From a virus: a stretch of DNA of 64,000 nucleotides. The notes below the pieces were generated by a model. The model was not told the DNA's origin. It worked only from the letters and a program-made list of their open reading frames with translations, and made no database searches. The position numbers and the translations under genes are program-made. The stretch spans positions 1 to 64,000 of IMG/VR virus record IMGVR_UViG_3300037461_000428; one strand, written 5' to 3'. Positions 2,479 through 23,940 of this stretch are shown in pieces. Position 1 is the stretch's first letter; each line of letters begins with the position of its first letter.

Positions 2479-2685
2479 GTGAAAGAGAATATTGATAAGG
2501 TAGTCGAAGGCTCACTTAAGGTGAGGAAAGAAACTCTAGAGAGACTATTTCGTCTTTTAAGCAAATCCGGCAGAGCATTAATATTTATTAGTTTTGCATC
2601 GATTATCGCAATTATAGCATTTTTAATTGGATCCAAAATTAAAGAAAAGGAAGACGATAAAATTCTTCGTCATTTTCATATATGA
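2479..2685 (+). CDS. hypothetical membrane protein
   Basis: 68-aa ORF with a GTG start 6 nt after AAGGAG. Central hydrophobic stretch ALIFISFASIIAIIAFLIG. Confidence 0.5.
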   Translation: MKENIDKVVEGSLKVRKETLERLFRLLSKSGRALIFISFASIIAIIAFLIGSKIKEKEDDKILRHFHI

Positions 2686-3308
2686 GAAAAGAATTTTTAG
2701 AATTTACCTGCACTAAAGAATGCCCATATACTTCTACTTGCTGTCGATTGCCCACTGAAGTAATCAAGCATGAAGGTAGAGAAGGAATAGATATTTTAAT
2801 ATTTGGACAAGGAGCCGGTAAAGACGAAGCAAAAATTGGTCGATGTTTTGTGGGTCGAAGTGGAAAATATATGAGAAGTATAATCAAATCTCTTTGGGAT
2901 AATCCAGAGGTCGGTCCTTTTAATATAGCTTTAACAAATAATGTAAGATTTAGACCAGAAGACGAAAATGGAAAAGACAGAATGCCAACCGCAGAAGAGA
3001 TATCTAGATGCATAACTCATTTACATAGAGATATTGCTCAACTTAATCCAAAGGTTATTGTGCCAGTTGGTAAAAATGCAACTTTATCAATATTAAATAC
3101 GTCGCCAACTTTTTTAAATGTTTCAATAGCTACTATGATTTCTCTGAGAGGAAACGTATTTACTAATACTAACGGAATAAAAAGGACTGTTATTCCTACT
3201 TGGCACCCGTCTTTTTTGTGTCGTCAATATGGGGGGTTTGATCCAACAAAGAATAACAAATACGACAAAGAGTTTATTGCAGATATCCTCAAAGCATTGG
3301 AGTGTTAG
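2682..3308 (+). CDS. uracil-DNA glycosylase, family 4-like
   Basis: GQGAGKDEAKIGRCFVGRSGKYM matches the GEAPG..E...G.PFVG.AG motif. TWHPSFLCR matches the HPS motif. N-terminal Cys cluster CTKECPYTSTCC. Confidence 0.75.
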   Translation: MRKEFLEFTCTKECPYTSTCCRLPTEVIKHEGREGIDILIFGQGAGKDEAKIGRCFVGRSGKYMRSIIKSLWDNPEVGPFNIALTNNVRFRPEDENGKDRMPTAEEISRCITHLHRDIAQLNPKVIVPVGKNATLSILNTSPTFLNVSIATMISLRGNVFTNTNGIKRTVIPTWHPSFLCRQYGGFDPTKNNKYDKEFIADILKALEC

Positions 3309-3623
3309 ATGAATAAAAATCTACGTAAAGCCATATTAAAAAGTATTGAGCATTGGCATCAGAATCTTGATATGTTAATATTGAACAACCTTAGTAATCA
3401 CTATCTTATAGATGATATAAGTATACTTGGAGAAGATTGTGCTTTATGTATATATTTGCATAGTTTGTGTTGTGATTGTCCATTATATGATAATTATAAA
3501 TGGAATTGTTGTAAAGAATATCAATCTGTAATTAATTGGTATTATGGTAATCATCGTACATATACTATTGGTTATAAAGTTATAAGTGTGATGCTTGAGA
3601 AACTTTATAGTTTATTAGATTAA
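3309..3623 (+). CDS. hypothetical Cys-rich protein
   Basis: 104-aa ORF whose ATG abuts the upstream stop. Confidence 0.55.
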   Translation: MNKNLRKAILKSIEHWHQNLDMLILNNLSNHYLIDDISILGEDCALCIYLHSLCCDCPLYDNYKWNCCKEYQSVINWYYGNHRTYTIGYKVISVMLEKLYSLLD

Positions 3624-3788
3624 TATAACTTGGTAGTATGCTTAGAAGTAGCAAGCTTTAATGAGTAGAGTGATACTGCCACTACCCACGGGGGCTATTC
3701 TTAATAATAGAGAATGTGCTAGGGTGGGAGTGGATAAACAGATCAACCTTAATAGGGCTCTTTTGGTGTAATAACACGCCAAGTTATA
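3624..3788 (+). ncRNA. candidate structured RNA (unknown family)
   Basis: No ORF. Closing stem TATAACTTGG/CCAAGTTATA. Inner stems GGTAGTAT/ATACTGCC, GCTT/AAGC and CCACTACCCA/TGGGAGTGG. Confidence 0.3.
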
Positions 3789-3799
3789 TTTAATATCAT

Positions 3800-3847
3800 A
3801 CAACTATCAAAGGTTGCCATTAAAACGGCAACCTTTTGTTTAGTTGT
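3800..3847 (+). repeat. boundary hairpin of cassette array A (attC-like, also terminator-like)
   Basis: ACAACTA-TC-AAAGGTTGCC loop GGCAACCTTTT-GTT-TAGTTGT. Near-identical copies at 10429 and 23251. Confidence 0.8.
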
Positions 3848-3900
3848 AGTCAATGCTGCGCCTCTCTGAATTTATAGGCGCGGCCAAGAAAGGAATAACA

Positions 3901-4158
3901 ATGTCAACATGTCAATCGTGTGGTGGAATTATCGGTCGAGATTGTTTTAATCCTGAAGAGTGTGCTTGGATTACTCAGCAACAGGCCAACCAATGCGAGG
4001 CCGCGCAGTACAACGCGGAAGAGGCACAGCACAGCCTACAACAGCTAAAGGCTGAAATTGCCACTCTTGTCGATAAACTTGAGGCTATTTCGGCGGAGTA
4101 TTTATATCACCATAATTATGTAATTATTAATAAGCTGCGGCAACTATCAGCCGTTTAG
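3901..4158 (+). CDS. small cassette protein (Cys-rich N-terminus, coiled-coil-like)
   Basis: ATG after AAGAAAGGAATAACA. It ends ...LRQLSAV like the paralog at 12184-12528. The track ORF starts at 3853. Confidence 0.6.
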   Translation: MSTCQSCGGIIGRDCFNPEECAWITQQQANQCEAAQYNAEEAQHSLQQLKAEIATLVDKLEAISAEYLYHHNYVIINKLRQLSAV

Positions 4159-4168
4159 CAAACGTTGG
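4038..4168 (+). repeat. attC-like imperfect hairpin (E-element)
   Basis: 5' arm ACAAC-AGC-TAAAG-GCTG. 3' arm CAGCC-GTTTAGC-AAAC-GTTGG. Long loop that contains the ORF end. Confidence 0.6.
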
Positions 4169-4200
4169 TTGCAATGTTTGCACACAAGAAAGGTTAATAT

Positions 4201-4434
4201 ATGGCGGCATTTAACGAGTGGTGGGAAGAGGCGCGTGAAGCATTAGCAGGATTTACCGACAAGGGAGTCGCTCATTTTGCGTGGGATGCCGCCATTAAGA
4301 GCTTGGAAGGTGTGCAAACACAGACAACCAACTGCCAAAGTGCGCCATGTCCTGTCTGCTCAACAGCATTACGGCTTGATGCAAATTTTTGTATGCAATG
4401 CGGCAGACGAGTACAGGACGAGGCGCACGTTTAG
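4201..4434 (+). CDS. small cassette protein, zinc-ribbon-like
   Basis: 77-aa ORF with RBS AGAAAGG. CPVC...CMQC pairs. Confidence 0.65.
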   Translation: MAAFNEWWEEAREALAGFTDKGVAHFAWDAAIKSLEGVQTQTTNCQSAPCPVCSTALRLDANFCMQCGRRVQDEAHV

Positions 4435-4447
4435 CAAACGTTGGTGG
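4324..4447 (+). repeat. attC-like imperfect hairpin (E-element)
   Basis: ACAACCAAC-TGCC-AAAG-TGCGCC ... GGCGCAC-GTTTAGCAAAC-GTTGGTGG. Distal stem GTGCGCC/GGCGCAC. Confidence 0.75.
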
Positions 4448-4482
4448 CAATTACGCCGCCGACAATTTATAGGAGCGCGATA

Positions 4483-4722
4483 ATGAGCACAGACTGGAGT
4501 GCTGCTAAGTATCGAAGAGAAGCCAAGCGGGAACCTGCGCGTCTTAAATTTTGGTTGCAGTATCACGATGACATCGACAGGGCAAGTAGAGATGTTTGCG
4601 ATAACCCGCCTGGCTTTGACGAATACTGGAGGCAGATGTTTCCTAACGCAAAAAGATATCGCGCTCAGCAGATTATTGAGCGGCGGCGCAACAGCCACCA
4701 ACACGCAAAGGGAATGAAATAA
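4483..4722 (+). CDS. small basic cassette protein
   Basis: ATG after TATAGGAGCGCGATA. The track ORF starts further upstream at 4441. Confidence 0.6.
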   Translation: MSTDWSAAKYRREAKREPARLKFWLQYHDDIDRASRDVCDNPPGFDEYWRQMFPNAKRYRAQQIIERRRNSHQHAKGMK

Positions 4723-4854
4723 TGCTTTACACTATTGTAATTTTATCGGTCGTCTGTGCCGTTTTACTCGGCATAGTAATATGGGGCATTTTCTTTTTAT
4801 CGAAGTTTGGTAATTGGAGATAGCGCATTACTTCACCCTTTTGCGGAACGTTGT
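4698..4854 (+). repeat. attC-like imperfect hairpin (E-element) with a mini-ORF in the loop
   Basis: CCAAC-ACGC-AAAGGG ... CCCTTTT-GCG-GAAC-GTTGT. The middle box is CGC/GCG here but TGC/GCA in other copies, which is a compensatory change. Confidence 0.7.
4722..4823 (+). CDS. small hydrophobic peptide, 33 aa
   Basis: The ATG overlaps the upstream TAA. Translation MLYTIVILSVVCAVLLGIVIWGIFFLSKFGNWR. Lies inside the loop of hairpin 4698-4854. Confidence 0.45.
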   Translation: MLYTIVILSVVCAVLLGIVIWGIFFLSKFGNWR

Positions 4855-4886
4855 ACGCAATAATTTGCTTAAGAAAGGTTTGATAT

Positions 4887-5105
4887 ATGGCCGCAAAAAG
4901 AAGCATCACTTGTATTAAACGAGATGTATGTATCTACCACATTGGACATAAATTTCCTGCCTGTAGTGGTTGCGGCCATTACATTAAGGAAACGCAAATT
5001 ACAGCGCACAACTGCCAAAGTACGCCGTGTTGTTCAGAGTGTGGTAGCACTTGTGTTTTAGTAATGTGTAATACTTGTGGTCATCGACATTGTTATTTAA
5101 AATAG
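4887..5105 (+). CDS. small Cys-rich cassette protein
   Basis: 72-aa ORF with RBS AAGAAAGG. Multiple CxxC pairs. Confidence 0.65.
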   Translation: MAAKRSITCIKRDVCIYHIGHKFPACSGCGHYIKETQITAHNCQSTPCCSECGSTCVLVMCNTCGHRHCYLK

Positions 5106-5131
5106 CACGGCGCACGTTTAGCAACCGTTGT
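5004..5131 (+). repeat. attC-like imperfect hairpin (E-element)
   Basis: GCGCACAAC-TGCC-AAAG-TACGCCGTG ... CACGGCGCAC-GTTTAGCAAC-CGTTGT. Confidence 0.75.
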
Positions 5132-5308
5132 AAGAAATAAATTTTGCTCTTTTAAATTATAAAGGCGCGGCGAACATTGCACGATCTAATTAATCGTGCG
5201 GTCAAATGCTGGTTAATTGCACAGGATATTGCCAGAGGTGTGATCGTGAACTGTGTACGAAGATCACCCCGCGCCTAATTTATTGTAGCAAAATTTACAT
5301 CTTACAAC
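5127..5308 (+). repeat. non-coding cassette closed by a long terminal stem (R-type)
   Basis: GTTGTAAGAAATAAATTTTGCT pairs with AGCAAAATTTACATCTTACAAC (20 of 22 positions). Inner stem AAAGGCGCGG/CCGCGCCT. No ORF of 60 aa or more. Confidence 0.7.
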
Positions 5309-5362
5309 AGCTAAAGGAATGCAACGCCAAAATTGGCGTAGCATCCGTTTAGCAAACGTTGG
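5304..5362 (+). repeat. compact attC-like hairpin (E-element)
   Basis: ACAAC-AGC-TAAAG-GAATGC [ACGCC..GGCGT] GCATCC-GTTTAGCAAAC-GTTGG. No coding content. Confidence 0.75.
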
Positions 5363-5418
5363 TTGCAATAAACCACCATGAATATTATAGTTCGGCGCAC
5401 AATAAAGGAGGTTGCCGC

Positions 5419-5634
5419 ATGAAAATAAAACAGATTACCGATCAGCATCGCAGAGATTTTTCAGCTATTTATATTTGCGAACATTGTGGTGTCGAAGAAA
5501 AAGGTAGTGGATATGATGATGATAATTTTCACCGCAATGTTATTCCTAATAAAGTTTGCAAATCATGCGGCAAAAAAGCACCGGAAGATTATTGTCCTAT
5601 CGGCACAAAATATCCTGCATACGCAGTTGTATAA
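5419..5634 (+). CDS. small zinc-ribbon cassette protein
   Basis: ATG after AAAGGAGG. CEHC...CKSC pairs. The gene is bracketed by the inverted repeat TTCGGCGCACAA (5391) / TTGTATAATGCGCCGAA (5627). Confidence 0.65.
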   Translation: MKIKQITDQHRRDFSAIYICEHCGVEEKGSGYDDDNFHRNVIPNKVCKSCGKKAPEDYCPIGTKYPAYAVV

Positions 5635-5670
5635 TGCGCCGAATTAAAATTAAGGATTGGTGGTTTACAT

Positions 5671-5724
5671 CAACCAACACGCAAGTCACGCCATAGAAGC
5701 GGCGTGAACTTGCGGACACGTTGT
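5671..5724 (+). repeat. compact attC-like hairpin (E-element)
   Basis: CAACCAAC-ACGC-AAGTCACGCC loop GGCGTGAACTT-GCG-GACAC-GTTGT. Confidence 0.75.
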
Positions 5725-5772
5725 AGTCAATTCCGGTTTTGAAAACCTTTTATTATAGGAGCGCGCAAGAAA

Positions 5773-6045
5773 ATGAAATTATTAAACGATATCAACATTG
5801 TTGTGTCTAACAATTTTATTGAACTTATGGCATTAAAAGCTGAGTCGGATGGTATGCTTTCTGAAAATTATCAACGGATGGCATTATCACAAAGTATGGC
5901 GTATGCAGAAAAAGATTTTCTTTACGTAGCGGATAGAATGCGCGCTCTGAAATATGATGAAGCAAAACCGGAACAGCCTACAACAACGCAAGGCCAAAAC
6001 GCCCAAAGCGGCGCATCGGCCTTGCGTAAACGTTGTAAGAAATAA
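5773..6045 (+). CDS. small cassette protein
   Basis: 90-aa ORF, ATG after TATAGGAGCGCGCAAGAAA. Translation runs through the whole hairpin 5980-6036. Confidence 0.6.
   Translation: MKLLNDINIVVSNNFIELMALKAESDGMLSENYQRMALSQSMAYAEKDFLYVADRMRALKYDEAKPEQPTTTQGQNAQSGASALRKRCKK
5980..6036 (+). repeat. compact attC-like hairpin (E-element)
   Basis: ACAAC-AACGCAAGGCC loop GGCCTTGCGT-AAAC-GTTGT. Confidence 0.75.
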
Positions 6046-6171
6046 GACTTGCTTTTATGATTATAAGCGGCAAAGTTTCTTTGGGTGTAGATTTTAAAAA
6101 CCTCCGCACGGATGCTACTGAACGTGTGGTTTGCAACTTACATTATGGAGGCAAGTCTTACATCTTACAAC
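6032..6171 (+). repeat. non-coding cassette closed by a long terminal stem (R-type)
   Basis: GTTGTAAGAAATAAGACTTGC pairs with GCAAGTCTTACATCTTACAAC. The variable hexamer covaries relative to 5127 and 10472. Confidence 0.7.
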
Positions 6172-6265
6172 AAATAAAACCTGCAATGCCGCCTGTCCAC
6201 CTATTAGGACTGGATCGCTTTAAATGCGGCGTGCGGCGGCAAAGCAGGTGTTTATCGGACGTTGT
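6167..6265 (+). repeat. attC-like imperfect hairpin (E-element)
   Basis: ACAAC-AAATAAAA-CCTGCAATGCCGCC ... GGCGGCAAAGCAGG-TGTTTATCGGAC-GTTGT. Confidence 0.65.
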
Positions 6266-6307
6266 ACGCAATGCCACTTTAAATTAGATGCGGCGGGAGG
6301 TGTTAAA

Positions 6308-6580
6308 ATGGTTTTCTCATGTCCAAAGTGTCACGGTGCAATATATCCGTCAGATAATGTTGACTATTACGATTGCGAAGATTGTCATCACTTGTATCAT
6401 ATCGAATATTTAAAAGGTTTTGTTGCAGGTAAAATGTCCGCCGCAAAAGCGATGGAACAAAGTGGCACAGCGCACAACACGCAAAGTGACGGCATGTTTA
6501 ACTGTCCACCATTATGCCCTGTCTGTGGTCGATGTCATGTGCCATCAATAGAGTGTTTGCCATTACTGAGTATCAGTTAA
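6308..6580 (+). CDS. small Cys-rich cassette protein (two zinc-ribbon-like units)
   Basis: ATG after GGGAGGTGTTAAA. CPKC..CEDC and CPVCGRC motifs. The track ORF 6224 begins upstream, inside the preceding hairpin. Confidence 0.6.
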   Translation: MVFSCPKCHGAIYPSDNVDYYDCEDCHHLYHIEYLKGFVAGKMSAAKAMEQSGTAHNTQSDGMFNCPPLCPVCGRCHVPSIECLPLLSIS

Positions 6581-6608
6581 ACACGACCGCACGTTTGCGG
6601 AACGTTGT
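6470..6608 (+). repeat. attC-like imperfect hairpin (E-element)
   Basis: GCGCACAAC-ACGC-AAAG-TGACGG ... CCGCAC-GTTT-GCG-GAAC-GTTGT. Confidence 0.7.
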
Positions 6609-6634
6609 TTGCAATTGCAATTGAGGAAAAATAT

Positions 6635-6829
6635 ATGATAGTCGAGCTTGCACAAGAAGCGGCAGAGTTAATCAAAGTGTATCGTGATAAAAATATTGTA
6701 ATTGATAACTGGCAGTATAGGGTGCAAGCTCTATTAATTGCAGTAGCTCAATTGCAACAGACAAACAACTCGCAAAGGAATGCAATGGCGGTCGAGCCGA
6801 GTACGGTAAACGAGCAATCGTTTCATTGA
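6635..6829 (+). CDS. small cassette protein
   Basis: ATG after GAGGAAAAATAT. 64 aa. Confidence 0.55.
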   Translation: MIVELAQEAAELIKVYRDKNIVIDNWQYRVQALLIAVAQLQQTNNSQRNAMAVEPSTVNEQSFH

Positions 6830-6894
6830 GCAAGCTCAGTGGCACACGTAAGATCGTGTGGTGTCCGCCACTGCATCCATTTGCGGGACGTTGT
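6765..6894 (+). repeat. attC-like imperfect hairpin (E-element)
   Basis: ACAAC-TCGC-AAAG-GAATGCAATGGCGG ... CCGCCACTGCATCC-ATTT-GCG-GGAC-GTTGT. Confidence 0.75.
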
Positions 6895-6928
6895 ACGCAA
6901 TGCCACTTTAAATTGAAAGGAGTTTGCC

Positions 6929-7138
6929 ATGTTACAAGAGGTAATTGATTTTCTTGACCATCAATTTTCAATGAAAGACGCAACAATTTTATACCGTGAC
7001 CAATGGCAAACTCTGAAATCTGCGGTACTTGCGGCACAGCCAACCAACTGCCAAAGTGCGCCATGTTCTTTTTGCGGCAGAGCGGTTACGGTTCAATTTC
7101 CGATATGTTTTGAGTGCCGTGGTAAAATTCATGATTAA
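6929..7138 (+). CDS. small zinc-ribbon cassette protein
   Basis: 69-aa ORF, ATG after GAAAGGAGTTTGCC. CSFC...CFEC pairs. Confidence 0.65.
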   Translation: MLQEVIDFLDHQFSMKDATILYRDQWQTLKSAVLAAQPTNCQSAPCSFCGRAVTVQFPICFECRGKIHD

Positions 7139-7164
7139 CAAGGCGCACGTTTAGCGACCGTTGT
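7041..7164 (+). repeat. attC-like imperfect hairpin (E-element)
   Basis: CAACCAAC-TGCC-AAAG-TGCGCC ... GGCGCAC-GTTTAGCGAC-CGTTGT. Paralogous to 4324 and 5004. Confidence 0.75.
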
Positions 7165-7199
7165 ACGCAATTGTAAATTTTAAACAGGAGTATTATAAT

Positions 7200-7430
7200 A
7201 TGCTCGCTCAACCATGCCCTTTTTGTGGTAGCAGTATTAGAATCTTTGACAATGTAGGAGGCCAGTGCGTTACTCATAAACACGATACCTGCTGTTTGAG
7301 TCACATGGTATTTAGATTGCGGTCATGGAATGAGCGAGCAAACGCTGTGGAAGAAAATTTACAACAGCGCACAACACAGCAAGGCACACAAGCCGCAAAA
7401 GAAAAAGACGCGGCCAGCGGCCATTGCTGA
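7200..7430 (+). CDS. small cassette protein (CPFC motif)
   Basis: ATG after CAGGAGTATTATAAT. In this gene the conserved GCGCACAAC arm is read as R-T-T, not as A-H-N. Confidence 0.6.
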   Translation: MLAQPCPFCGSSIRIFDNVGGQCVTHKHDTCCLSHMVFRLRSWNERANAVEENLQQRTTQQGTQAAKEKDAASGHC

Positions 7431-7438
7431 AACGTTGT
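7367..7438 (+). repeat. attC-like imperfect hairpin (E-element)
   Basis: GCGCACAAC-A-CAGCAAGGC ... GGCCATTGCTG-AAAC-GTTGT. Confidence 0.65.
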
Positions 7439-7471
7439 ACGCAACCGGCAATGAAACTATAGGAGCGCAAT

Positions 7472-7597
7472 ATGTCGCAGATCGAAAAGAATACGCAGTC
7501 TATTGAGGCACTTGCAGAAGAAATACGGTTGTTACGTGAACAAGTTATTGCGCTCAAAGAGCAATTGGAATCATTGCCAGCAGCGCACAACAAATAA
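7472..7597 (+). CDS. small coiled-coil-like cassette protein, 41 aa
   Basis: ATG after TATAGGAGCGCAAT. Translation MSQIEKNTQSIEALAEEIRLLREQVIALKEQLESLPAAHNK. Below the track cutoff. Confidence 0.5.
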   Translation: MSQIEKNTQSIEALAEEIRLLREQVIALKEQLESLPAAHNK

Positions 7598-7725
7598 AGG
7601 TTAAAATTGTGGCCGATACCAAAAAACGCAGTTCAAGCTTCTCTGATCTCAAAAGAAGTATGGCGGTTTTACATAAAGTTTCCGCTGCAAAGCGGCCACA
7701 ACTTCAACCATTTATCGCACGTTGT
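7583..7725 (+). repeat. attC-like imperfect hairpin (E-element)
   Basis: GCGCACAAC-AAA-TAAAGGTTAAAATTGTGGCC ... GGCCACAACTTCAACCATTTA-TCGCAC-GTTGT. Confidence 0.7.
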
Positions 7726-7810
7726 ACGCAATGCTGCCCTTAAAACATTATTAGAGTTTGCGGCGGCCAAGAACGCGGCATCGTGCCGCGAAGAGAAAGG
7801 CAAAAACAAA

Positions 7811-8833
7811 ATGCAAATCACAAGAAACCTTATCGTACCAACTGGCAATATACTCGTGGTATCTGGAGCAAAAGGCAATTTGGAAATGCTTTCTCTTGCT
7901 GATTATGGACAGAGCGTAAATCTAAACCAACACAAAGCAGTAGAAAACGGATTGCCGCTTTTGCCACTAACTGAAAAGTGGGTGGTTACAGTTTCAACAC
8001 AATACGGTTGTTCAATGTGCTGTGAATTTTGCGATGTGCCGAAAGTTGGAGCGGGAAAAAACGCTACATTTCACGATCTTTGTGGTCAAATTCTTACGGC
8101 GTTGACATTACCAAATGTTCCACAGCAGACCAAAAGATTAAATATTCATTTTGCGCGAATGGGGGAACCATCTTGGAACCCTGCTGTTCTTGATTGCGGG
8201 AAATGGATAATGGAACATCTTGGCGATACCTACAATCCGCATCCTGTTGTTTCTACAATGATGCCGCGTAAAAACGAATGGTTGAAAACATTTATTCATA
8301 ATTGGATGAGAATGAAAAACAGGGTTTATCGTGGGAATGCAGGCTTGCAGCTTTCAATAAATTCAACAGATGAAGAAGAAAGAAAAAGAATGTTTTCTGG
8401 CAATGCTTGTACGCTTGAGGAAATATCAGAAATCATGCGTGGCATTATCCCTGTCGGAAGAAAAATAACTCTCAATTTTGCAGTAGCGGGATACACTGTA
8501 GATTGTGATAAACTTGCAAGGCTTTTTTCTCCTGAATTGTTTATTGTAAAGCTAACACCGATGCACAAAACTGACAAAGCAATCCAGAACGGAATAAAAA
8601 CGGAAGGTGATTATACAACACCAGAACCGTATTTAGAACTTGAAACAAGATTACAAAAAGCTGGATTTGATACTCTTGTTTTTATAGCAAGCGATGATGA
8701 AGATAAAGGAAGAATAACTTGCGGTAATGCAATTCTTTCTGGAACATTACCAGAATGCAAATATCAAGAGACGCATCCCTGCGCCGAGAGGCCGCCGCAA
8801 GACACTGTAGAAACGGGCAGCACATGCGTATAA
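7811..8833 (+). CDS. radical SAM enzyme, RlmN/Cfr-like
   Basis: VSTQYGCSMCCEFCDV contains CxxxCxxC. MGEPSWNP, LQLSINSTDEEERKRMF and the C-terminal GRITCGNAILSG parallel RlmN/Cfr blocks. The start was moved to ATG 7811 because the track start 7607 runs through a hairpin. Confidence 0.8.
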   Translation: MQITRNLIVPTGNILVVSGAKGNLEMLSLADYGQSVNLNQHKAVENGLPLLPLTEKWVVTVSTQYGCSMCCEFCDVPKVGAGKNATFHDLCGQILTALTLPNVPQQTKRLNIHFARMGEPSWNPAVLDCGKWIMEHLGDTYNPHPVVSTMMPRKNEWLKTFIHNWMRMKNRVYRGNAGLQLSINSTDEEERKRMFSGNACTLEEISEIMRGIIPVGRKITLNFAVAGYTVDCDKLARLFSPELFIVKLTPMHKTDKAIQNGIKTEGDYTTPEPYLELETRLQKAGFDTLVFIASDDEDKGRITCGNAILSGTLPECKYQETHPCAERPPQDTVETGSTCV

Positions 8834-8912
8834 CAGCCGCAGTATGCAAAGCGGATTACACTATGGAGTTTATTAATTAATAGCCGCTCAGCACACATGC
8901 GGCATACGTTGT
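8832..8912 (+). repeat. probable E-element (arms less regular)
   Basis: AAC-AGCCGCAGTATGC-AAAGCGG ... CCGCT..CATGCGGCATAC-GTTGT. The pairing register is ambiguous. Confidence 0.35.
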
Positions 8913-8943
8913 AAGAAATAAATTTTGCTCTTTGTAATTGTAG
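8908..8943 (+). repeat. orphan 5' arm of an R-type cassette
   Basis: GTTGTAAGAAATAAATTTTGCTCTTTGTAATTGTAG is near-identical to 5127-5162, but no matching ...TTACATCTTACAAC partner follows. Confidence 0.5.
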
Positions 8944-9029
8944 TTTGCATACAGCGGGTTCCGGTAGACCAACCTACGGCACTCCAAAAAAGTAACATTA
9001 GTAACGGTCGCTAAGCGGAAACAGCTACC

Positions 9030-9156
9030 GACAGCCAAAAGGATGAAATTTGCCCTAATTGTGGCTGTGTTGCTATCAGTATTGGTAATAACAATTTTCT
9101 GTGCGGTTGTGAGCCTGATCGTTAGGCAAATTATCAGCCATTTAGCGATACGTTGT
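9030..9156 (+). repeat. probable E-element with a mini-ORF in the loop
   Basis: GACAGCC-AAAAGG-ATGAAATTTGCC ... GGCAAATTATCAGCC-ATTTAGC-GATAC-GTTGT. The core on the 5' side is degenerate. Confidence 0.45.
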
Positions 9157-9195
9157 GCGCAATTAAAATTTTTCTGGAGTTATAATGGTAACTAA
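9043..9195 (+). CDS. small hydrophobic peptide, 50 aa
   Basis: ATG after CCAAAAGG. Translation MKFALIVAVLLSVLVITIFCAVVSLIVRQ... It overlaps the next gene's start. Confidence 0.4.
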   Translation: MKFALIVAVLLSVLVITIFCAVVSLIVRQIISHLAIRCAQLKFFWSYNGN

Positions 9196-9373
9196 AAAAG
9201 AAATCGGTGATATGGTTTTTCAGATTATTCGTGAAAAATGTGTCAGCGATATGGCGGCATTTCGTGCATCTGAGGACGTTGCTATTTACATTGTGGATAA
9301 AATTTTACCAGCTGCTCTTTCTGCCAATGAAGATATAATCTTTAATAATTGGAAAGATGCAGAAAACAATTAG
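9185..9373 (+). CDS. small protein at the right edge of array A (KDAENN family)
   Basis: 62-aa ORF, ATG after CTGGAGTTATA. Its 3' end and the downstream 20 nt are repeated at 24480-24575. Confidence 0.65.
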   Translation: MVTKKEIGDMVFQIIREKCVSDMAAFRASEDVAIYIVDKILPAALSANEDIIFNNWKDAENN

Positions 9374-10428: not shown

Positions 10429-10476
10429 ACAACTATCAAAGATTGCCATTAAAACGGCAACCTTTTGTTTAGTTGT
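10429..10476 (+). repeat. boundary hairpin of cassette array B
   Basis: ACAACTATCAAAGATTGCC attaaaac GGCAACCTTTTGTTTAGTTGT. A copy of 3800-3847. Confidence 0.8.
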
Positions 10477-10644
10477 AAGAAATAAACTTGGCTTTTGTCT
10501 TATAGAAAATGGTGCGAAAAATGCGCTTAATTAGTTGCTTAAAACAGCCCTCGGATTATTCGCTATTATCATGGAACCCGACCAAGCTGCCGGTTCGAGC
10601 GAGCCATTTTTTACATTATGGAAGCCAAGTTTACATCTTACAAC
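10472..10644 (+). repeat. non-coding cassette closed by a long terminal stem (R-type)
   Basis: GTTGTAAGAAATAAACTTGGC pairs with GCCAAGTTTACATCTTACAAC. The interior is unrelated to the other R copies. Confidence 0.7.
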
Positions 10645-10767
10645 AAATGCGTTATGCAATATCCCGCTCCGGCATGGTTGCCATAGCACTACTAGAAATG
10701 GTTCGCAAGGTGTAAACATGGATTCGAGTCCCATGGGCGGGATATAGCATAACACATCAACCGTTGT
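10640..10767 (+). repeat. attC-like hairpin whose loop holds a tRNA-like element
   Basis: ACAAC-AAA-TGC-GTTATGC ... GCATAAC-ACATCAAC-CGTTGT. Confidence 0.65.
10663..10742 (+). ncRNA. tRNA-like element (acceptor plus T-arm, no canonical anticodon arm)
   Basis: Acceptor CCCGCTC/GGGCGGG. T-arm ATGGA-TTCGAGT-CCCAT. GGCA-tggt-TGCC hairpin. The central arm has a 13-nt loop. Confidence 0.4.
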
Positions 10768-10795
10768 ACAAAATTAAAATTTTTCTGGAGGTTAT

Positions 10796-11029
10796 ATGGC
10801 AAAAACTTATCTGTGCCCATATTCTAAAACGGAGAGCATACGATGTAATTTACAAACACCATGTATAGAGTGTAAGGTATTTTTGCCGGACACTATGGAT
10901 AAAATTTTAACTTCGTACAACAAACAAAGTATGCCATTTTGTGCTTTACCGGATCATTGCGATATGCAAAGCGCAGTTTATTTATGTAATTGCGAATCGA
11001 TTTGTAAGCATAAACGGCATACTTTGTAA
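10796..11029 (+). CDS. small Cys-rich cassette protein
   Basis: 77-aa ORF, ATG after CTGGAGGTTAT. Confidence 0.6.
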   Translation: MAKTYLCPYSKTESIRCNLQTPCIECKVFLPDTMDKILTSYNKQSMPFCALPDHCDMQSAVYLCNCESICKHKRHTL

Positions 11030-11037
11030 AACGTTAG
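10914..11037 (+). repeat. attC-like imperfect hairpin (E-element)
   Basis: TCGTACAAC-AAA-CAAAGTATGCC ... GGCATACTTTG-TAAAAC-GTTAG. The distal stem is 11 perfect bp. Confidence 0.7.
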
Positions 11038-11078
11038 ATGCAATGTTCGCCTTAAAACAGTATAGGAGTTTTTCGCGC

Positions 11079-11327
11079 ATGAAACTATCTCGTTGTATTT
11101 GCGGTCGTGAAGCAAAAATATGGGCTGGGCAGTATGGGGATGAATTGCGTACAATTGAGTGTAATTGCGGCATCTCAACGTTGGCATGGTGGAACGGGAA
11201 TAAATGTGCCGCAAATTGGAATACAATTCAGCGCGAAAAAAGAAAAGTTGAAGCGGCGAACACAGCATCTAACAACAGCGTTACGCAAGCCGCAGAAACA
11301 AAAAGCACGGCCAGCGCAACACTGTAA
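11079..11327 (+). CDS. small cassette protein (CICG...CNCG)
   Basis: ATG after TATAGGAGTTTTTCGCGC. The track ORF 10941 begins inside the previous cassette. Confidence 0.6.
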   Translation: MKLSRCICGREAKIWAGQYGDELRTIECNCGISTLAWWNGNKCAANWNTIQREKRKVEAANTASNNSVTQAAETKSTASATL

Positions 11328-11334
11328 ACGTTGT
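11272..11334 (+). repeat. compact attC-like hairpin (E-element)
   Basis: ACAAC-AGCGTTACGC ... GCGCAACACTG-TAAAC-GTTGT (9 of 11 positions pair). Confidence 0.55.
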
Positions 11335-11374
11335 GCGCAATGGGCGCGGAGAGCGTTTTTATAGGAGCTGCCAA

Positions 11375-11560
11375 ATGAAAGTATCTGCTATTGAGCAAGT
11401 AGTGAAATATTATCAGTCAATCGTTGACTCGTTGCCTATTGGTGGTTTTGGCGTGAAGGTGTTACACGATGCTTTGGTGGAATTGGCCGCTCTGAAGGCA
11501 GCGGAGTCCGCGCCCACAGACGCACAACAAACCAATGGCGGCGCAAAGCCTAAATGCTGA
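11375..11560 (+). CDS. small cassette protein
   Basis: ATG after TATAGGAGCTGCCAA. 61 aa. Confidence 0.55.
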   Translation: MKVSAIEQVVKYYQSIVDSLPIGGFGVKVLHDALVELAALKAAESAPTDAQQTNGGAKPKC

Positions 11561-11591
11561 GTATAGCACTTCGCCATTGGTCTGACGTTGT
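11520..11591 (+). repeat. compact attC-like hairpin (E-element)
   Basis: ACGCACAAC-AAA-CCAATGGCG ... CGCCATTGG-TCTGAC-GTTGT. The distal stem is 9 perfect bp. Confidence 0.75.
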
Positions 11592-11623
11592 ACGCAATAT
11601 TTTGCTTAAGAAAGGTTTGATAT

Positions 11624-11851
11624 ATGGCTGCTAATACAGGAATACGATTGTTGCCAAAAAATCTTTCTGATTCTGATCGTGCTTTATGGCTTGCAGGTTA
11701 CGAAGCGGCCATTAACGCTATGGAAGCGCAAAATACAGTGCACAACATCAGCGTTATGCCATGTGTCGGTTGTCTGAACAAAATCACAACTTGTCGGCTT
11801 GGTTATCAGATCGAAGATCAGCCTTGTAACCAGCGCACGGCACAACACTGA
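11624..11851 (+). CDS. small cassette protein
   Basis: 75-aa ORF. Its 5' UTR (TTGCTTAAGAAAGGTTTGATAT) is the same as that of the gene at 4887. Confidence 0.6.
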   Translation: MAANTGIRLLPKNLSDSDRALWLAGYEAAINAMEAQNTVHNISVMPCVGCLNKITTCRLGYQIEDQPCNQRTAQH

Positions 11852-11860
11852 AAACGTTGT
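11738..11860 (+). repeat. attC-like imperfect hairpin (E-element)
   Basis: GTGCACAAC-ATCAG-CGTTATGCC ... GGCACAACA-CTG-AAAAC-GTTGT. Confidence 0.6.
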
Positions 11861-11887
11861 ATACAATATTTAACAATCGAGGTTAAT

Positions 11888-12136
11888 ATGTCAAATTTGA
11901 AACGATATACAGAGAGTTATTGTTGTGGTAAGTATGATGGCATGGAAGAGGATTCTCTCGCTGGCGAATGGGTCAAATTTGACGACATTAAGGAGTTGTT
12001 AAATACCGTGCACAACCGCCAAAGGGATGAAATATTGCATCTTATTATGGATGATTCGTTTGCTATTTCATTTCAGTCGTTTAGTCAGTATCGGTCGGCA
12101 TTGGTTAAAGAGATCGCAAAACTATCAGCCATTTAG
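11888..12136 (+). CDS. small cassette protein
   Basis: 82-aa ORF, ATG after CGAGGTTAAT. It ends ...KLSAI, encoded by the shared AACTATCAGCCATTTAG module. Confidence 0.6.
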   Translation: MSNLKRYTESYCCGKYDGMEEDSLAGEWVKFDDIKELLNTVHNRQRDEILHLIMDDSFAISFQSFSQYRSALVKEIAKLSAI

Positions 12137-12146
12137 CAAACGTTGT
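12008..12146 (+). repeat. E-element arms present but distal stems do not match
   Basis: 5' arm GTGCACAAC-CGCC-AAAG-GGATG. 3' arm CAGCC-ATTTAGCAAAC-GTTGT. This looks like a recombinant or decayed site. Confidence 0.35.
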
Positions 12147-12183
12147 AGTCCATAATTGTGCAACCATATCATAGGAGGTGCGT

Positions 12184-12528
12184 ATGTATATAGGCGGTAA
12201 TGAAATTTCTAAACAGGTGGATTTCTTCGAGCTAGAAGCTAAGAACCGTGTTACAGCTGGTGATTTTGATACGGCGCAATGGTGCATTCAAGCTGCAAAT
12301 GCCGCGTTTCAGGCGTATGTATGTATTTGTAAACGTGAACGCGCCGAAGAAAAACAGCCTACAACAGCTCAAGCATGTCAGCCGGAGGAAGCGGGCCACA
12401 CAAACAGCCAACAACTAAAATCCGAAATTGCCGCTCTTGTAGCGGAATGTAGTGCTAATGCCATCAATAGTGGTAATAATAAGTATCAGTGGTTAATTGA
12501 TAGACTGCGGCAACTATCAGCCGTTTAG
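12184..12528 (+). CDS. small cassette protein, paralog of 3901-4158
   Basis: ATG after ATAGGAGGTGCGT. It shares QQLK.EIA.LV and the terminal LRQLSAV with 3901-4158. Confidence 0.6.
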   Translation: MYIGGNEISKQVDFFELEAKNRVTAGDFDTAQWCIQAANAAFQAYVCICKRERAEEKQPTTAQACQPEEAGHTNSQQLKSEIAALVAECSANAINSGNNKYQWLIDRLRQLSAV

Positions 12529-12539
12529 CGGTACGTTAT
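12408..12539 (+). repeat. probable E-element
   Basis: CCAACAAC-TAAAA-TCCG ... CAGCC-GTTTAGC-GGTAC-GTTAT. A homolog of 4038-4168. Confidence 0.45.
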
Positions 12540-12566
12540 GCAAAAGTTTTAACGCTGGAGATTTAT

Positions 12567-12821
12567 ATGTCAACGCTCGATGATCTTTGGAACGACACTA
12601 TGTACGCATACCAAAATGGTGAGCTGTCGCGGGAACAGGTCGCGTTGAAATTTGCGGAGGCGTTAAAACCTTCGCACAACAAACCTATGCCAAAATTGCC
12701 GACACTGGCGGAATGTCAAACAGAGATACAGTCGCAGATATGGGGTGGCGGCTTTAAGGGAACATCTTCAAATATAACTGAGATTGTTTACAATTTTATA
12801 TGTCGGCAACTGTCGGCATAG
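12567..12821 (+). CDS. small cassette protein
   Basis: 84-aa ORF, ATG after CTGGAGATTTAT. Confidence 0.6.
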   Translation: MSTLDDLWNDTMYAYQNGELSREQVALKFAEALKPSHNKPMPKLPTLAECQTEIQSQIWGGGFKGTSSNITEIVYNFICRQLSA

Positions 12822-12833
12822 GTCGGACATTGT
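12672..12833 (+). repeat. attC-like imperfect hairpin (last element of array B)
   Basis: TCGCACAAC-AAA-CCTATGCC-AAAA-TTGCCGACA ... TGTCGGCAA-C-TGTC-GGCATAGG-TCGGAC-ATTGT. Confidence 0.7.
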
Positions 12834-12876
12834 AAGCAATTTGTCTAAACTTTTAATGCTATACTATAACAATACT

Positions 12877-12923
12877 GGGGAATAACTCAATTGGTTAGAG
12901 TTCAAGTCTCTCTTCCCTTACCA
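12877..12923 (+). ncRNA. 47-nt tRNA-like minihelix ending in ACCA
   Basis: GGGAA/TTCCC acceptor-like stem, AATTGGTT D-loop-like segment, AGAG-TTCAAGT-CTCT T-arm, then TTACCA. Confidence 0.35.
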
Positions 12924-13361
12924 TTTTATAAGAAGGATCTTATTTCACATTATAATACATTAAAAACTGAGCTTCGTAACAAGAAGAATTTAATTAAGGC
13001 TCTTGTTCGAAGAGGATGGAAAGAAGAGAACATAGAAGTACATGATGAGGCCCAAAATTTAGTTGATTATCAAGGCGATAAAAGAAATCAGAAAGCTGAG
13101 ATAATTATACGCAGAAAATACGTAGGTGGTGCTTCTAATGATATGGGATTTAAGCTCCAATCAGATGGAACTTATCAGGCTATTATATCAGACTTTGACC
13201 GTAATAAATACGGTGATCAGTTCATGAAGAATCTTGAACTAGACTATGGTGTGGAACAGACTAAGGATGCATTCACAATGAACGGCTGGCAGTTTCAGGA
13301 ATCCACTGACGAAAAAGGAAATGTAGTATTGCTTGGTCAGGTTTACGAAGGAAGTTACTAA
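12891..13361 (+). CDS. DUF1257 (Ycf35-like) protein; start uncertain
   Basis: Paralog of 47479-47907. Shared segments are SHxxxxxTELxxKKxLxxAL and Y.A..D..... The best alignment begins at ATT 12942, 4 nt after AAGAAGGA. The track uses TTG 12891, which lies inside the minihelix. Confidence 0.6.
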   Translation: MVRVQVSLPLPFYKKDLISHYNTLKTELRNKKNLIKALVRRGWKEENIEVHDEAQNLVDYQGDKRNQKAEIIIRRKYVGGASNDMGFKLQSDGTYQAIISDFDRNKYGDQFMKNLELDYGVEQTKDAFTMNGWQFQESTDEKGNVVLLGQVYEGSY

Positions 13362-14372: not shown

Positions 14373-14654
14373 ATGAAGTTGCCGATTAATTATAACAAAA
14401 GTAATTCTACTTTACGCAGAGCTGTAAGAGAAGAGTATATAAGACTTCAAAAAGGAATATGTTCTCATTGTGGAATTCCTTTGAATGAAGACCCACCAGA
14501 AGAAATAACAAGATTAAAAGTTAATAAGAGTTTATTTCCTAAAGACTTTTTTAAATGGTCTGTTCATTTACACCACGATCATAACACTGGAATGACCATA
14601 GGAGCAATACATAATTATTGTAATGCTGTATTATGGCAGTATTACGGAGAATAA
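14373..14654 (+). CDS. endonuclease VII-like (HNH/Endo VII fold) nuclease
   Basis: CSHCG plus HLHHDHNTGMTIGAIHNYCN matches the DHDH.TG..RG..C..CN signature of the T4 endonuclease VII family. Confidence 0.7.
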   Translation: MKLPINYNKSNSTLRRAVREEYIRLQKGICSHCGIPLNEDPPEEITRLKVNKSLFPKDFFKWSVHLHHDHNTGMTIGAIHNYCNAVLWQYYGE

Positions 14655-16747: not shown

Positions 16748-17527
16748 ATGAGAAATATAAAAATATCAGGACTATCAGTTGATCAAACTTACGAGATAAT
16801 TCCAGATAGAACTTTGCTTTTGGGGTACGTCGGAAGTATTTCTCATGGAACTCAGATAAAAAAAGATAATCCAGACTGCATTGATGATATCGATATACTT
16901 GGGATTGCGCTTGGACCAGAAAATGTCTATTATGGCTTAGGTAAGTTTGAACAAAAAGAAGTTAAGAAAGACGAATGGGACAGTGTAGTATATGAGATAA
17001 AAAAAGCCTTTAGACTCTTATTAGGACAAAATCCTAATGTAATGGCTTTACTCTGGTTGCAGGAAAAGGACTATATACATATCTCTCCTACAGGGAGAAT
17101 GATCTTGGATAATCGTAACTTGTTCGTTAGTAAGCAGGCCTATCATTCATTCACTGGATACGCTCACGGCCAAGTTCATAGAGCTTTACATTTCGGAGAT
17201 ATGAAACAAGCCTATATGGGGGCTAAGAGATATGAGCTTGTACAAAAATATGGTTATGACACAAAAAACATGAGCCACTGTATCCGTCTTATGAGGATGT
17301 GCATCGAATACCTAGGTGATGGGGTACTAAGAGTCTTCAGAGAAGATGCTTGCGAACTTAAGGATATTAAATCTGGTAAGTGGAGTCTTGAAAAAGTTCA
17401 AAAGGAAACAGATAGATTATTCGTATTAGCACAAGAGGCGTTTGTAAGATCTACGCTTCCTAATCAACCAGACAAACAAAAAGCAGAAGAGTTGTTAATC
17501 TCGATTCTCAAAAAGGAGTTATCATGA
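16748..17527 (+). CDS. Pol-beta-superfamily nucleotidyltransferase (RlaP-like)
   Basis: GYVGSISHGTQ........DDIDILGI fits the GS..hG...D.D..G pattern of the nucleotidyltransferase family found next to RNA-repair ligases. Confidence 0.55.
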   Translation: MRNIKISGLSVDQTYEIIPDRTLLLGYVGSISHGTQIKKDNPDCIDDIDILGIALGPENVYYGLGKFEQKEVKKDEWDSVVYEIKKAFRLLLGQNPNVMALLWLQEKDYIHISPTGRMILDNRNLFVSKQAYHSFTGYAHGQVHRALHFGDMKQAYMGAKRYELVQKYGYDTKNMSHCIRLMRMCIEYLGDGVLRVFREDACELKDIKSGKWSLEKVQKETDRLFVLAQEAFVRSTLPNQPDKQKAEELLISILKKELS

Positions 17528-22397: not shown

Positions 22398-22419
22398 AAT
22401 ATTTGATGGGATTGCATAA
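22162..22419 (+). CDS. hypothetical basic protein
   Basis: 85-aa ORF, ATG after AAAGGATTAAAAA. Overlaps 21978-22397. Confidence 0.45.
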   Translation: MATKRTPLQTTKKVPRKRGGLKQIAIYQKKTLLNITGEPSEIQKLMADVHHFIGSHELVVGGKTKKKVSVTHQSTEPIKIFDGIA

Positions 22420-22439
22420 TACATAAGATTATATTAGAT

Positions 22440-22887: not shown

Positions 22888-22900
22888 CACGGGTATAATT
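22888..22900 (+). promoter_or_regulatory. shared CACGGGTATAAT-type motif (possible -10 region)
   Basis: CACGGGTATAATT lies 20 nt upstream of ATG 22920. See 14330. Confidence 0.3.
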
Positions 22901-23250: not shown

Positions 23251-23357
23251 ACAACTATCAAAGGTTGCTATGCCGATAACATCCTGTGCGCGGGGTTGTT
23301 GATGACTGGCGCACCACCGACGCGACAACGCGGCACGGTAACCTTTTATTTAGTTGG
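23251..23357 (+). repeat. boundary hairpin of cassette array C with an insertion in its loop
   Basis: ACAACTATCAAAGGTTGC [about 60-nt GC-rich insert] GTAACCTTTTATTTAGTTGG. The arms match 3800 and 10429. Confidence 0.7.
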
Positions 23358-23389
23358 TTGCAATGCCGCAAGAATGAAAGGAATTTGCC

Positions 23390-23867: not shown

Positions 23868-23940
23868 TTAATAGTATTTATACTAGTTAATTAATAGCAC
23901 CTTATCCCAACTGGCCGAGGAAAAGGTGCTTAAAAACCTT

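Follow-up and report, generated by a model that had tools for sequence, protein, structure and literature searches.

We analysed a 64,000-nucleotide stretch of phage DNA, positions 1–64,000 of the virus record IMGVR_UViG_3300037461_000428 (the window), in which three stretches of 41–43% GC stand out from an AT-rich backbone of 31–32% GC. These stretches, designated arrays A, B and C (Table 1), consist of tandem cassettes, mostly with a single small open reading frame (ORF) each, that meet at ACGTTG cores. We observed directly a shared hairpin site with covarying arms and a strand asymmetry, breakpoints at the cores, polymorphism in cassette content, and the same arrangement in other phages. 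From these sequence comparisons, we lean towards the reading that the cassettes are moved by structure-specific, integron-like recombination, in which the antisense strand folds into a hairpin and exchange takes place at its ACG|TTG core.

To our knowledge, integrons have been seen as a bacterial device, recently also an archaeal one, and in phages only stray pairs of attC sites have been reported. Our literature search found no paper describing arrays of the present kind, the nearest being phage clusters of attC sites lacking an integron-integrase (CALINs), with 2–4 sites each (PMC9892861).

Cassette ends and the hairpin site

A cassette extends from one ACGTTG core to the next. Its junctions read ...(A)ACGTTG(T/G)..., and it contains one inverse core, CAAC. 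The junction motif was matched 77 times, against 44 ± 6.8 expected, and every exact match within the three arrays lies on the + strand; outside them, exact matches occur on the - strand at 1324–1335 and on the + strand at 22338. The assigned cassette ORFs are likewise all on the + strand, and no invertase was found among the scanned ORFs of the window, which rules out a shufflon or other invertible segments. At least 26 cassettes are present in this phage, with sizes of 229–410 bp except for one of 1187 bp.

Each site is built from two stems. About 20–45 nt before CAAC complement the first bases of the same cassette after GTTG, and not those of the adjacent cassette, to give an outer stem; ~20 nt after CAAC complement the last ~20 nt of the cassette before GTTG, to give an inner stem. 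The mean pairing energy of the outer arm with its own cassette start was -23.1 kcal/mol, as compared with -10.2 kcal/mol for other starts, and 0 of 20,000 permutations reached the former value. Pairing with the adjacent downstream start was similarly weak (-5 to -16 kcal/mol). For the inner stem, the cassette's own 3' arm gave -17.9 versus -10.3 kcal/mol otherwise. In array B, the ORF-less cassette B0r paired with its own start at -29.7 kcal/mol and with the start of the next cassette at -5.3 kcal/mol; its outer arms are GTTGTAAGAAATAAACTTGGCT and AGCCAAGTTTACATCTTACAAC, the 44-nt arms being 77% complementary. Cassette B3 ranked first in own-start pairing (-36.1 kcal/mol). The same rule holds in two relatives, L126 and L139 (in L139, -24.6 versus -12.0 kcal/mol).

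Covariation was examined in an alignment of 29 sites (23 from the window and six from one relative), each with its own cassette start appended. Of the cells, 76% were paired, compared with 54% after shuffling and 37–45% when the pairing register was slid. Cells in which both sides had changed numbered 278, a figure reached in 0 of 500 shuffles, versus 114 in shuffled alignments.

In the inferred site, the outer stem forms the base and is followed by the core (CAAC/GTTG). Next come a bulge of 3 nt, a box with the conserved sequence GCAAAG / CTTTGC and an extrahelical base, and a variable stem and loop make up the tip. The bulge lies beside the core on the junction arm, its antisense GT being conserved in 29 and 25 of the 29 sites, and the single extrahelical base lies 7 bp beyond it on the same side. 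A T.T position is conserved in the outer stem, and the distal stems are idiosyncratic to each cassette. Bulge and core together often read AACGTT or NACGTT (for example at 4160–4167), giving a palindrome of 4–6 bp (ACGT) at every duplex junction; the inverse core has no such palindrome.

Joining the two ends of a cassette at G|TTG produces one continuous predicted hairpin. In array B, circular joining stabilised the predicted bottom-strand sites by ~6.5–15 kcal/mol in six of the eight cassettes (for B1, -34.3 kcal/mol when joined versus -22.9 kcal/mol in the array; for B2, -34.1 versus -20.9 kcal/mol), the other two, B5 and B6, being decayed. In the ORF-less cassettes, which we call R-type, the outer stem alone is conserved and covarying and encloses dissimilar structured noncoding interiors (RNAalifold, five copies).

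Strand asymmetry and breakpoints at the cores

CAAC lies in ORF frames 0, 1 and 2 in 6, 3 and 10 cassettes, respectively. Because it is read in all three frames it is not a protein motif, and a repeat of protein origin was ruled out on this ground. The pairing itself favours one strand: G.T wobbles numbered 95 on the antisense and 30 on the sense strand (p = 5e-9). The bias persisted without the four columns of recurrent wobbles (55 versus 27) and was repeated in L139 (18 versus 7), and the antisense arms were stabler with DNA parameters (Wilcoxon p = 8e-5). In the window, G exceeds C on the top strand, a skew that would, if anything, predict wobbles on the sense strand.

At conserved mismatches, the sense strand has A.C where the antisense strand has G.T, the opposite of what is expected of a helix in sense RNA. 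This bears on an explanation at the level of RNA alone, in which the hairpins stabilise, terminate or process a polycistronic mRNA, or control translation, and the mosaicism is incidental. Such roles would fit the overlap of the sites with ORF ends and 5' untranslated regions (UTRs), the stop codon that some sites supply (TAG within CGTTTAGC), the many RNA-handling proteins that the phage encodes, and the boundary hairpin, the only terminator-like one (the copy at 3809–3836 has a 10-bp stem followed by a T-run). However, outer and inner stems become one continuous helix only once the cassette ends have been joined, and the precise replacement of cassettes described below would be left unexplained. 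Rfam searches, at the gathering threshold and at E ≤ 1, gave nothing in arrays A and B; the array C region gave a partial tRNA match at 24643–24701, just past the last core, and two subthreshold small RNA matches before the array start. We regard a purely RNA-level role of these sites as highly improbable.

Mosaicism was evident in array B itself. A reading made from the sequence alone had proposed that array B opens with a near-identical copy of the hairpin at 3800, and the 48-nt copies at 3800–3847 and 10429–10476 indeed differ only at one G/A position, with 0 such copies expected by chance. The R-type cassette that it placed next is present and ORF-less (10472–10766), but the eight gene cassettes that it counted are seven with ORFs plus this R-type cassette. 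Three 5' UTR classes had been described as common to arrays A and B. Two of them are exact between arrays (TTGCTTAAGAAAGGTTTGATAT at 4865 in array A and 11602 in array B; AAAATTTTTCTGGAG at 9165 and 10776), whereas exact copies of the third, TATAGGAGCGC, are confined to arrays A and C, and its counterpart in array B is only TATAGGAG (11061 and 11360). The ORFs at 12184–12528 and 3901–4158, taken to be paralogs, are alike in their last 47 residues (47% identity) and unrelated in their N-terminal parts. Their likeness spans from ~10 nt before CAAC to the terminal GTTG, and the site of B6, although decayed, is homologous to that of cassette A0 (4039–4167). The two arms at 12008–12146 had been assigned to different families, and the site in question (12013–12145, cassette B5) proved to be such a hybrid: its 3' arm belongs to the family of 4126–4159 and 12496–12529, and its 5' arm resembles that of cassette A2. 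This site barely folds (-3.3/-3.8 kcal/mol), ranks 19 of 23 in pairing, and gains nothing from circular joining.

Shuffling at the junctions, which the sequence-only reading had suggested as the source of these patterns, is supported by the position of the breakpoints, since those of shared segments coincide with the hairpin cores. Similarity to the left of a core was uncorrelated with similarity to its right, both for 351 pairs of junctions and for 253 pairs of CAAC cores (Spearman -0.02 and -0.03). Where two junctions were ≥70% identical on one side of GTTG, the other side was always at background (14–55%). In alignments within the window, identity begins at ACGTTG and ends at CAAC. For example, cassettes A3 (4850–5127) and B4 share two stretches of about 93% identity, one starting at ACGTTG and reaching the first codons, the other comprising the ~40 nt that lead up to CAAC; the ORF bodies and the sequences after CAAC are unrelated.

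The same was seen between phages. In data of JGI sample 3300007628, sequences L133 and L126, which represent two variants of a related phage, have flanks that are 97.7% and 99.1% identical, between which L133 carries one cassette of 272 nt and L126 carries three (983 nt); cassettes of L126 recur in L127 of that sample. On the left, the break comes immediately behind GTTGT, and on the right it is ≤13 nt from GTTG. The first cassettes of the arrays in L139, L221 and L222 form one family, in which the DNA preceding GTTG is unrelated and identity starts at GTTG itself. L139 and L134 have radical-SAM cassettes with ~95% identity that extends ~10 nt beyond CAAC; past this point they diverge, which behaves like a variable terminal structure. 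Further breakpoints mark where the stems end on their inner side, one close to the start codon and the other some 45 nt ahead of CAAC.

Breakpoints at the inner stem are what double crossovers in flanking homology would leave, and they bring in the promoter early stem-loop (PeSL) elements of T4-type phages, each a local stem-loop with a sigma-70-type early promoter, between copies of which homologous recombination at repeated motifs takes place (PMC2839356; PMC4122927). By analogy, the present conserved elements could be regulatory or structural intergenic modules (terminator hairpin, 5' UTR, ribosome-binding site), and the sequence between two copies would be swapped by general recombination of the RecA/UvsX type. 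In both systems short, repeated structured motifs flank small ORFans in plastic regions of large virulent phages and mark the differences in gene content between relatives, and for PeSLs circular excision products have been proposed and shown. The 5' UTR classes common to unrelated ORFs, which include the Shine-Dalgarno sequence, and the terminator-like score of the boundary hairpin would suit such modules, and the window encodes a RecA-like recombinase, UvrD and, below the Pfam cut-off, an endonuclease VII-like protein. However, the stem-loop with an immediate sigma-70-type promoter that defines a PeSL was not found. Promoter-like sites were not enriched (26 versus 24.6 ± 5.0 in shuffled sequences) and held no consistent position relative to the cores. 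R-type cassettes were not supported as promoters. In contrast to PeSLs, coding sequence separates the two arms here, which nevertheless pair with each other over the length of the cassette; they also covary, and their wobbles favour the antisense strand. Homologous recombination needs neither inverted-complement cassette flanks nor compensatory covariation. Furthermore, the junctions are precise even without flanking homology: in three phages the same cassette starts exactly at GTTG after unrelated DNA, leaving no homology on that side. An origin by PeSL-like exchange thus seems unlikely to us, although it deserves real weight.

Breakpoints at both GTTG and CAAC would also suit a reading in which each hairpin, GTTG...CAAC or CAAC...GTTG, is a small mobile unit with terminal inverted repeats, moved as a single strand by an enzyme of the HUH type (IS200/IS605 or RAYT-like), or by another single-strand enzyme, that targets the tetranucleotide at the foot. 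Repetitive extragenic palindromes and bacterial interspersed mosaic elements (REP/BIME), with their RAYT enzymes, and the ends of IS200/IS605 are short, noncoding and dependent on an HUH Y1 enzyme. They share with our sites the strand-specific imperfect palindrome with a conserved foot tetranucleotide, in their case often in alternating orientation. The preference for one strand agrees with this, as do families with conserved inverted ends around variable interiors (the R-type cassettes, A3/B4, and the first cassettes of L139 and L222). The hairpins here, by contrast, enclose coding cargo, and Pfam searches, which covered the ORFs of ≥75 aa that lie on the + strand of the window but not in the arrays, together with the examined flanks of the relatives, found no Y1/HUH transposase. 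The distal stems differ from cassette to cassette instead of being family-wide, which argues for recognition of structure and not of sequence, and the swap between L133 and L126 has both its ends at GTTG. We therefore consider transposition of such units very improbable.

Relation to integrons and a possible mechanism

The arrays resemble integrons in several respects. Cassettes are in tandem and in one orientation, mostly with a single small ORF, ORF-less ones occurring in both, and their composition differs from that of the carrier genome. The site is an imperfect palindrome bounded by two cores, an inverse one that ends in AAC and one that begins with GTT, where the cassette boundary lies; it folds with unpaired features on one side and a variable tip, and the antisense strand is apparently favoured. 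At 52–162 nt, the palindromes between the cores are of the size of attC sites (about 57–141 bp) and, like them, fold to a hairpin. A crossover at G|TT implies that each cassette starts with bases complementary to its own inverse core, and this complementarity was found, extending over 20–45 nt here rather than 6.

These likenesses could mean that the arrays are canonical integron cassettes, derived from a bacterial chromosomal integron and inserted by the IntI of a host at GTT-containing secondary sites. CALINs of ≥2 attC sites that IntI1 recombines occur in virulent phages (PMC9892861), and IntI can reportedly insert cassettes outside att sites (bioRxiv 10.1101/2022.09.11.507474). The invariant AAC/GTT, the site size, the hairpin with unpaired features and the lack of a nearby integrase are all compatible with this origin. 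The attC consensus, RYYYAAC / GTTRRRY, and the reference geometry of unpaired bases (PMC3053210) are nevertheless not reproduced. AAC is invariant in 26/26 inverse cores and GTT is present in 26/27 cores, but GTTRRRY fits only 1/27 cores and RYYYAAC 0/26 inverse cores, the consensus here being ACGTTGTAC / GCACAAC. The 3-nt bulge is followed by 7 bp and not by T-N6-G, and the outer stem has 20–45 cassette-specific base pairs instead of 7 bp. The cassettes are smaller than those of integrons, their ORFs run through the inverse core, and no integrase was found in the ORFs scanned. The carriers are phages of several unrelated backbones, with at least 26 cassettes in one phage compared with 2–4 attC sites in the published phage CALINs (PMC9892861). 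Moreover, such cargo as could be identified is of phage type: the radical-SAM gene belongs to PHROG 24834, a small gene has counterparts in phages of Yersinia and Streptococcus, and one domain is Tad2-like. Sites of this type are also found in phages that differ widely in GC content and hence, presumably, in their hosts. Host-derived attC cassettes are, in our view, decidedly unlikely to account for the arrays.

A one-strand hairpin as recombination substrate has a precedent in the attP of CTX phage, which is a single site used with XerCD for chromosomal integration of a filamentous phage. There too, one strand folds into a hairpin that imitates the core site of a duplex, its two arms enclosing a centre with unpaired bases; unlike the present sites, it is a single integration site and does not form arrays of gene cassettes.

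Under integron-like, structure-specific recombination, a cassette would be excised as a circle by joining of its two GTTG cores. The joined pieces would then fold, as a single strand in vivo and with the antisense strand favoured as substrate, into one long imperfect hairpin, and a structure-specific recombinase would cut and rejoin at the core of this folded strand. In this manner, cassettes could be excised, inserted and reordered within and between phage genomes. The cargo moved would be phage accessory genes, including zinc-ribbon ORFans, a radical-SAM-like enzyme and, in a relative, a Tad2-like domain, as well as the structured noncoding interiors of R-type cassettes.

Several findings weigh against this reading. 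No circular cassette or junction read was observed, and the circles are something that we infer. Bulge and extrahelical base lie on the junction-core arm, opposite to the arm that carries the unpaired bases of attC. Conserved stems are shared around unrelated ORF bodies, and breakpoints also occur at CAAC; since a crossover at GTTG by itself cannot explain either, homologous recombination or a second exchange point must contribute, and exchange at GTTG would be only part of the story. No pairing was seen between the left flanks of the boundary hairpins and the DNA that follows the final core of the respective array (ranks 11–14 of 29), so that an ancestral empty long hairpin is not demonstrated. 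The searches for a recombinase were also negative. With Pfam (E ≤ 1e-3, or E ≤ 0.01 for the 29 longest ORFs), no tyrosine or serine recombinase and no HUH transposase was found in the + strand window ORFs of ≥75 aa outside the arrays, the radical-SAM ORF being the only one included from inside them. The 19 main cassette ORFs gave no recombinase or HUH enzyme (Pfam, E ≤ 0.05), and selected longer flank ORFs of L139, L221 and L222 gave no recombinase. Phage_integrase was absent from those precomputed Pfam labels of L126 and L129 that were read.

PHROGs applied to the ORFs left without an assignment likewise returned no recombinase. These searches covered the 64-kb window of a genome of at least about 213 kb, the ORFs of L134 lying outside the scan. 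The genome size is the sum of three Logan contigs of run SRR12684589: one of 137.8 kb that ends at array A, one of 6.65 kb that spans array A, and one of 68.5 kb that starts in array B. The assembler broke at the repeated boundary hairpins.

Nucleases of the Holliday-junction-resolvase type lie beside arrays in three phages. L222 encodes RusA directly upstream of its array (2–442, a clear Pfam match), L139 a VRR-NUC-like protein directly upstream (2670–3077, just under the Pfam cut-off), and the window, at a distance of 1.5 kb downstream from array B, a protein resembling endonuclease VII (14373–14654, 22.1 bits against a cut-off of 23.6). This may simply reflect the placement of the arrays in replication and recombination modules.

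A broader proposal is plausible, though we hold it more tentatively: that the arrays are a phage-borne counterpart of integrons, comprising a pool of circularisable mini-cassettes among unrelated phages, a new type of long-hairpin site with an ACG|TTG core and an active antisense strand, a recombinase other than IntI (either a novel phage enzyme or a co-opted one, from the host or structure-specific), and a reservoir of genes for counter-defence and host takeover, possibly with small structured RNAs. If this is true, phages would own a cassette system in which tiny accessory genes are kept and rearranged by the dozen, one or more of them with an anti-defence domain, as a mirror image of the bacterial integrons that stockpile anti-phage defences. 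It would show concretely how the ORFan regions of large phages can be hyperplastic, and would provide a new structure-specific recombination site whose geometry, active strand and crossover point are predicted at base resolution. Scanning for the site would then offer a practical route to mining phage accessory genes, and the breaks of metagenome assemblies in such regions would be explained.

Array layout, relatives and neighbouring genes

The features of the three arrays are collected in Table 1. The cores of array B lie at 10472, 10763, 11033, 11330, 11587, 11856, 12142, 12535 and 12829; the first is the 3' GTTG of the boundary hairpin, which thus serves as the first cassette junction, and the last is a variant, ATTG.

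Table 1. Coordinates of the cassette arrays, their cassettes and associated elements in the window
Feature	Coordinates	Strand	Description
R0, structured noncoding element	3620–3800	+	13-bp closing stem; ends resemble R-type arms
Array A	3800–9155	+	boundary hairpin 3800–3847 and 15 cassettes
R-type cassettes of array A	starts 5127, 6032, 8908	+	three of the 15
Cassette A13	7721–8911	+	1187 nt; radical-SAM-like gene (PHROG 24834, 2e-102)
Array B	10429–12832	+	boundary hairpin, then 8 cassettes: 1 R-type and 7 with ORFs
Boundary hairpin of array B	10429–10476	+	minimal site: CAAC, 14-nt arm, 8-nt loop, arm, GTTG
B0r, ORF-less R-type cassette	10472–10766	+	inverse core 10641; site 10641–10766
B1	10763–11036	+	ORF 10796–11029 (77 aa); CAAC 10918; site 10918–11036; core variant GTTA
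B2	11033–11333	+	ORF 11079–11327 (82 aa); CAAC 11273; site 11273–11333
B3	11330–11590	+	ORF 11375–11560 (61 aa); CAAC 11525; site 11525–11590
B4	11587–11859	+	ORF 11624–11851 (75 aa); CAAC 11743; site 11743–11859
B5	11856–12145	+	ORF 11888–12136 (82 aa); CAAC 12013; site 12013–12145, hybrid/decayed
B6	12142–12538	+	ORF 12184–12528 (114 aa); CAAC 12412; site 12412–12538; core variant GTTA
B7	12535–12832	+	ORF 12567–12821 (84 aa); CAAC 12677; site 12677–12832
Array C	23251–24358	+	boundary hairpin 23251–23356, about 3 cassettes, partly decayed

The cassette order of array A is the same in an independent Logan contig, and the recurrence of arrays in independent assemblies and samples rules out an assembly artefact. 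A megablast search with the arrays and 25 kb of the backbone found no nucleotide match among 50,697 phage records. The RecA/UvsX-like recombinase of the window (51264–52418) is ≤31% identical to the closest protein from a phage isolate.

Arrays of the same architecture were found in five other phage backbones (L126/L127/L128, L134, L139, L221 and L222). L139 is a 56.7-kb contig that encodes a terminase and was binned as Chitinivibrionales. The IMG/VR sequences L221 and L222 were found through a shared 5' UTR motif, the 17-mer TTGTAGGCCGCCGCAAG, which gave these two true arrays and four chance matches in GC-rich coding DNA. The 14-mer ACGTTGTACGCAAT gave only chance single matches in IMG/VR, the four IMG/VR matches of an 18-mer from the boundary hairpin were all unrelated, and a metagenome scan with a two-part 5' UTR pattern yielded one match, a useful one.

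Across these backbones, of 31–54% GC, the arrays have 41–48% GC. The radical-SAM-like gene of A13 has thousands of close homologues. Four phages carry it as a cassette, whereas in L125, L130–132 and L135–137 it is an ordinary gene, closely packed among its neighbours; outside cassettes it follows the GC content of the local backbone.

Most cassette ORFs are ORFans of 41–114 aa, many of them cysteine-rich, and one has a zinc-ribbon match just under the Pfam cut-off (24.9 versus 25 bits). The ORF of cassette A5 (5419–5634, 71 aa, two CxxC pairs) has 68–75% DNA identity to small hypothetical genes of Yersinia T4-like phages (fHe-Yen9-01 gp108, phiR1-RT and TG1) and of Streptococcus phages. The match is confined to the ORF, and conservation this wide at the nucleotide level is unusual for a tiny phage gene. 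One cassette of L126 encodes a Tad2-like anti-Thoeris domain (1.4e-5). Tiny hydrophobic ORFs of 33 and 50 aa lie in the loops of two sites, downstream of CAAC (4722–4823 and 9043–9195), each with a single transmembrane helix predicted by eye.

Besides the partial Rfam match after array C, fragments resembling tRNA were noticed within and beside the arrays. The loop of the B0r site (within 10690–10760) contains a T-arm-like GGATTCGAGTCC with a 7-bp acceptor-like stem, a truncated tRNA-like sequence lies just after array B (12868–12925), and an R-type cassette of L221 (4842–4990) has a T-arm and an 11-bp stem. ARAGORN found no tRNA in the R-type cassettes, and neither it nor Rfam made a call for these three fragments. 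A connection with the Ro/TROVE protein of the phage, as Y-RNA-like cargo, is only a guess.

The element R0, immediately upstream of array A, folds at -58.8 kcal/mol (z -4.9), and 0 of 200 shuffled sequences fold as well. Its 3' end runs straight into the boundary hairpin of array A and supplies the CAAC of that hairpin, and the best partner for pairing with its 3' flank is the beginning of the R-type cassette at 10472; arrays B and C have no R0. Because R0 has R-like ends and supplies the CAAC, a degenerate R-type cassette may be what boundary hairpin A was the site of. The boundary hairpin of array C is a third copy with the same arms and a 60-nt insertion in the loop.

Small genes after arrays A (9185–9373) and C (24396–24557) encode the same end peptide, ..LSANED.IF...KDAENN, and are followed by the same TTAGACAATAAAC, which places the two arrays in paralogous backbone contexts. 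At 24800–24840, CACGTTTAGTGGCACGTTTTATG resembles a degenerate junction (compare CACGTTTAGCAAACGTTGTACG). It is ~450 nt beyond the final core that is clear in array C, which may thus have been longer at one time. Directly upstream of array C, a 103-aa ORF (22920–23231) contains HAE...(28 aa)...CxxC, reminiscent of zinc-dependent cytidine deaminases, although it had no sequence match in Pfam or PDB. It is preceded by a GC-richer noncoding stretch of ~450 nt (22400–22900), with a z-score of only -1.84 and no Rfam match. A gene of the uracil-DNA glycosylase superfamily (2682–3308) lies upstream of array A; a search for relatives of it found none. No homologues were found for a gene of 237 aa that separates array A from array B, and its AlphaFold model was unusable (pLDDT 34.6).

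Throughout the window, all ORFs of ≥150 aa are on the + strand. Besides proteins named above, the window encodes a DNA ligase, an RNA ligase, a ClpB-like ATPase and five tRNAs. A gene set of the RNA-repair type (16748–17527, 31851–33119 and 34338–35888) comprises an RlaP nucleotidyltransferase, the RNA ligase with a PHA02142 OB domain and the Ro/TROVE protein; a cREC_REC domain protein belongs to the same set, and several tRNA genes lie near it. Finally, a 939-aa AAA ATPase (44647–47466) is split by an intein-like insertion, in which a LAGLIDADG domain scores above the Pfam cut-off and Hom_end and Hint domains score more weakly.

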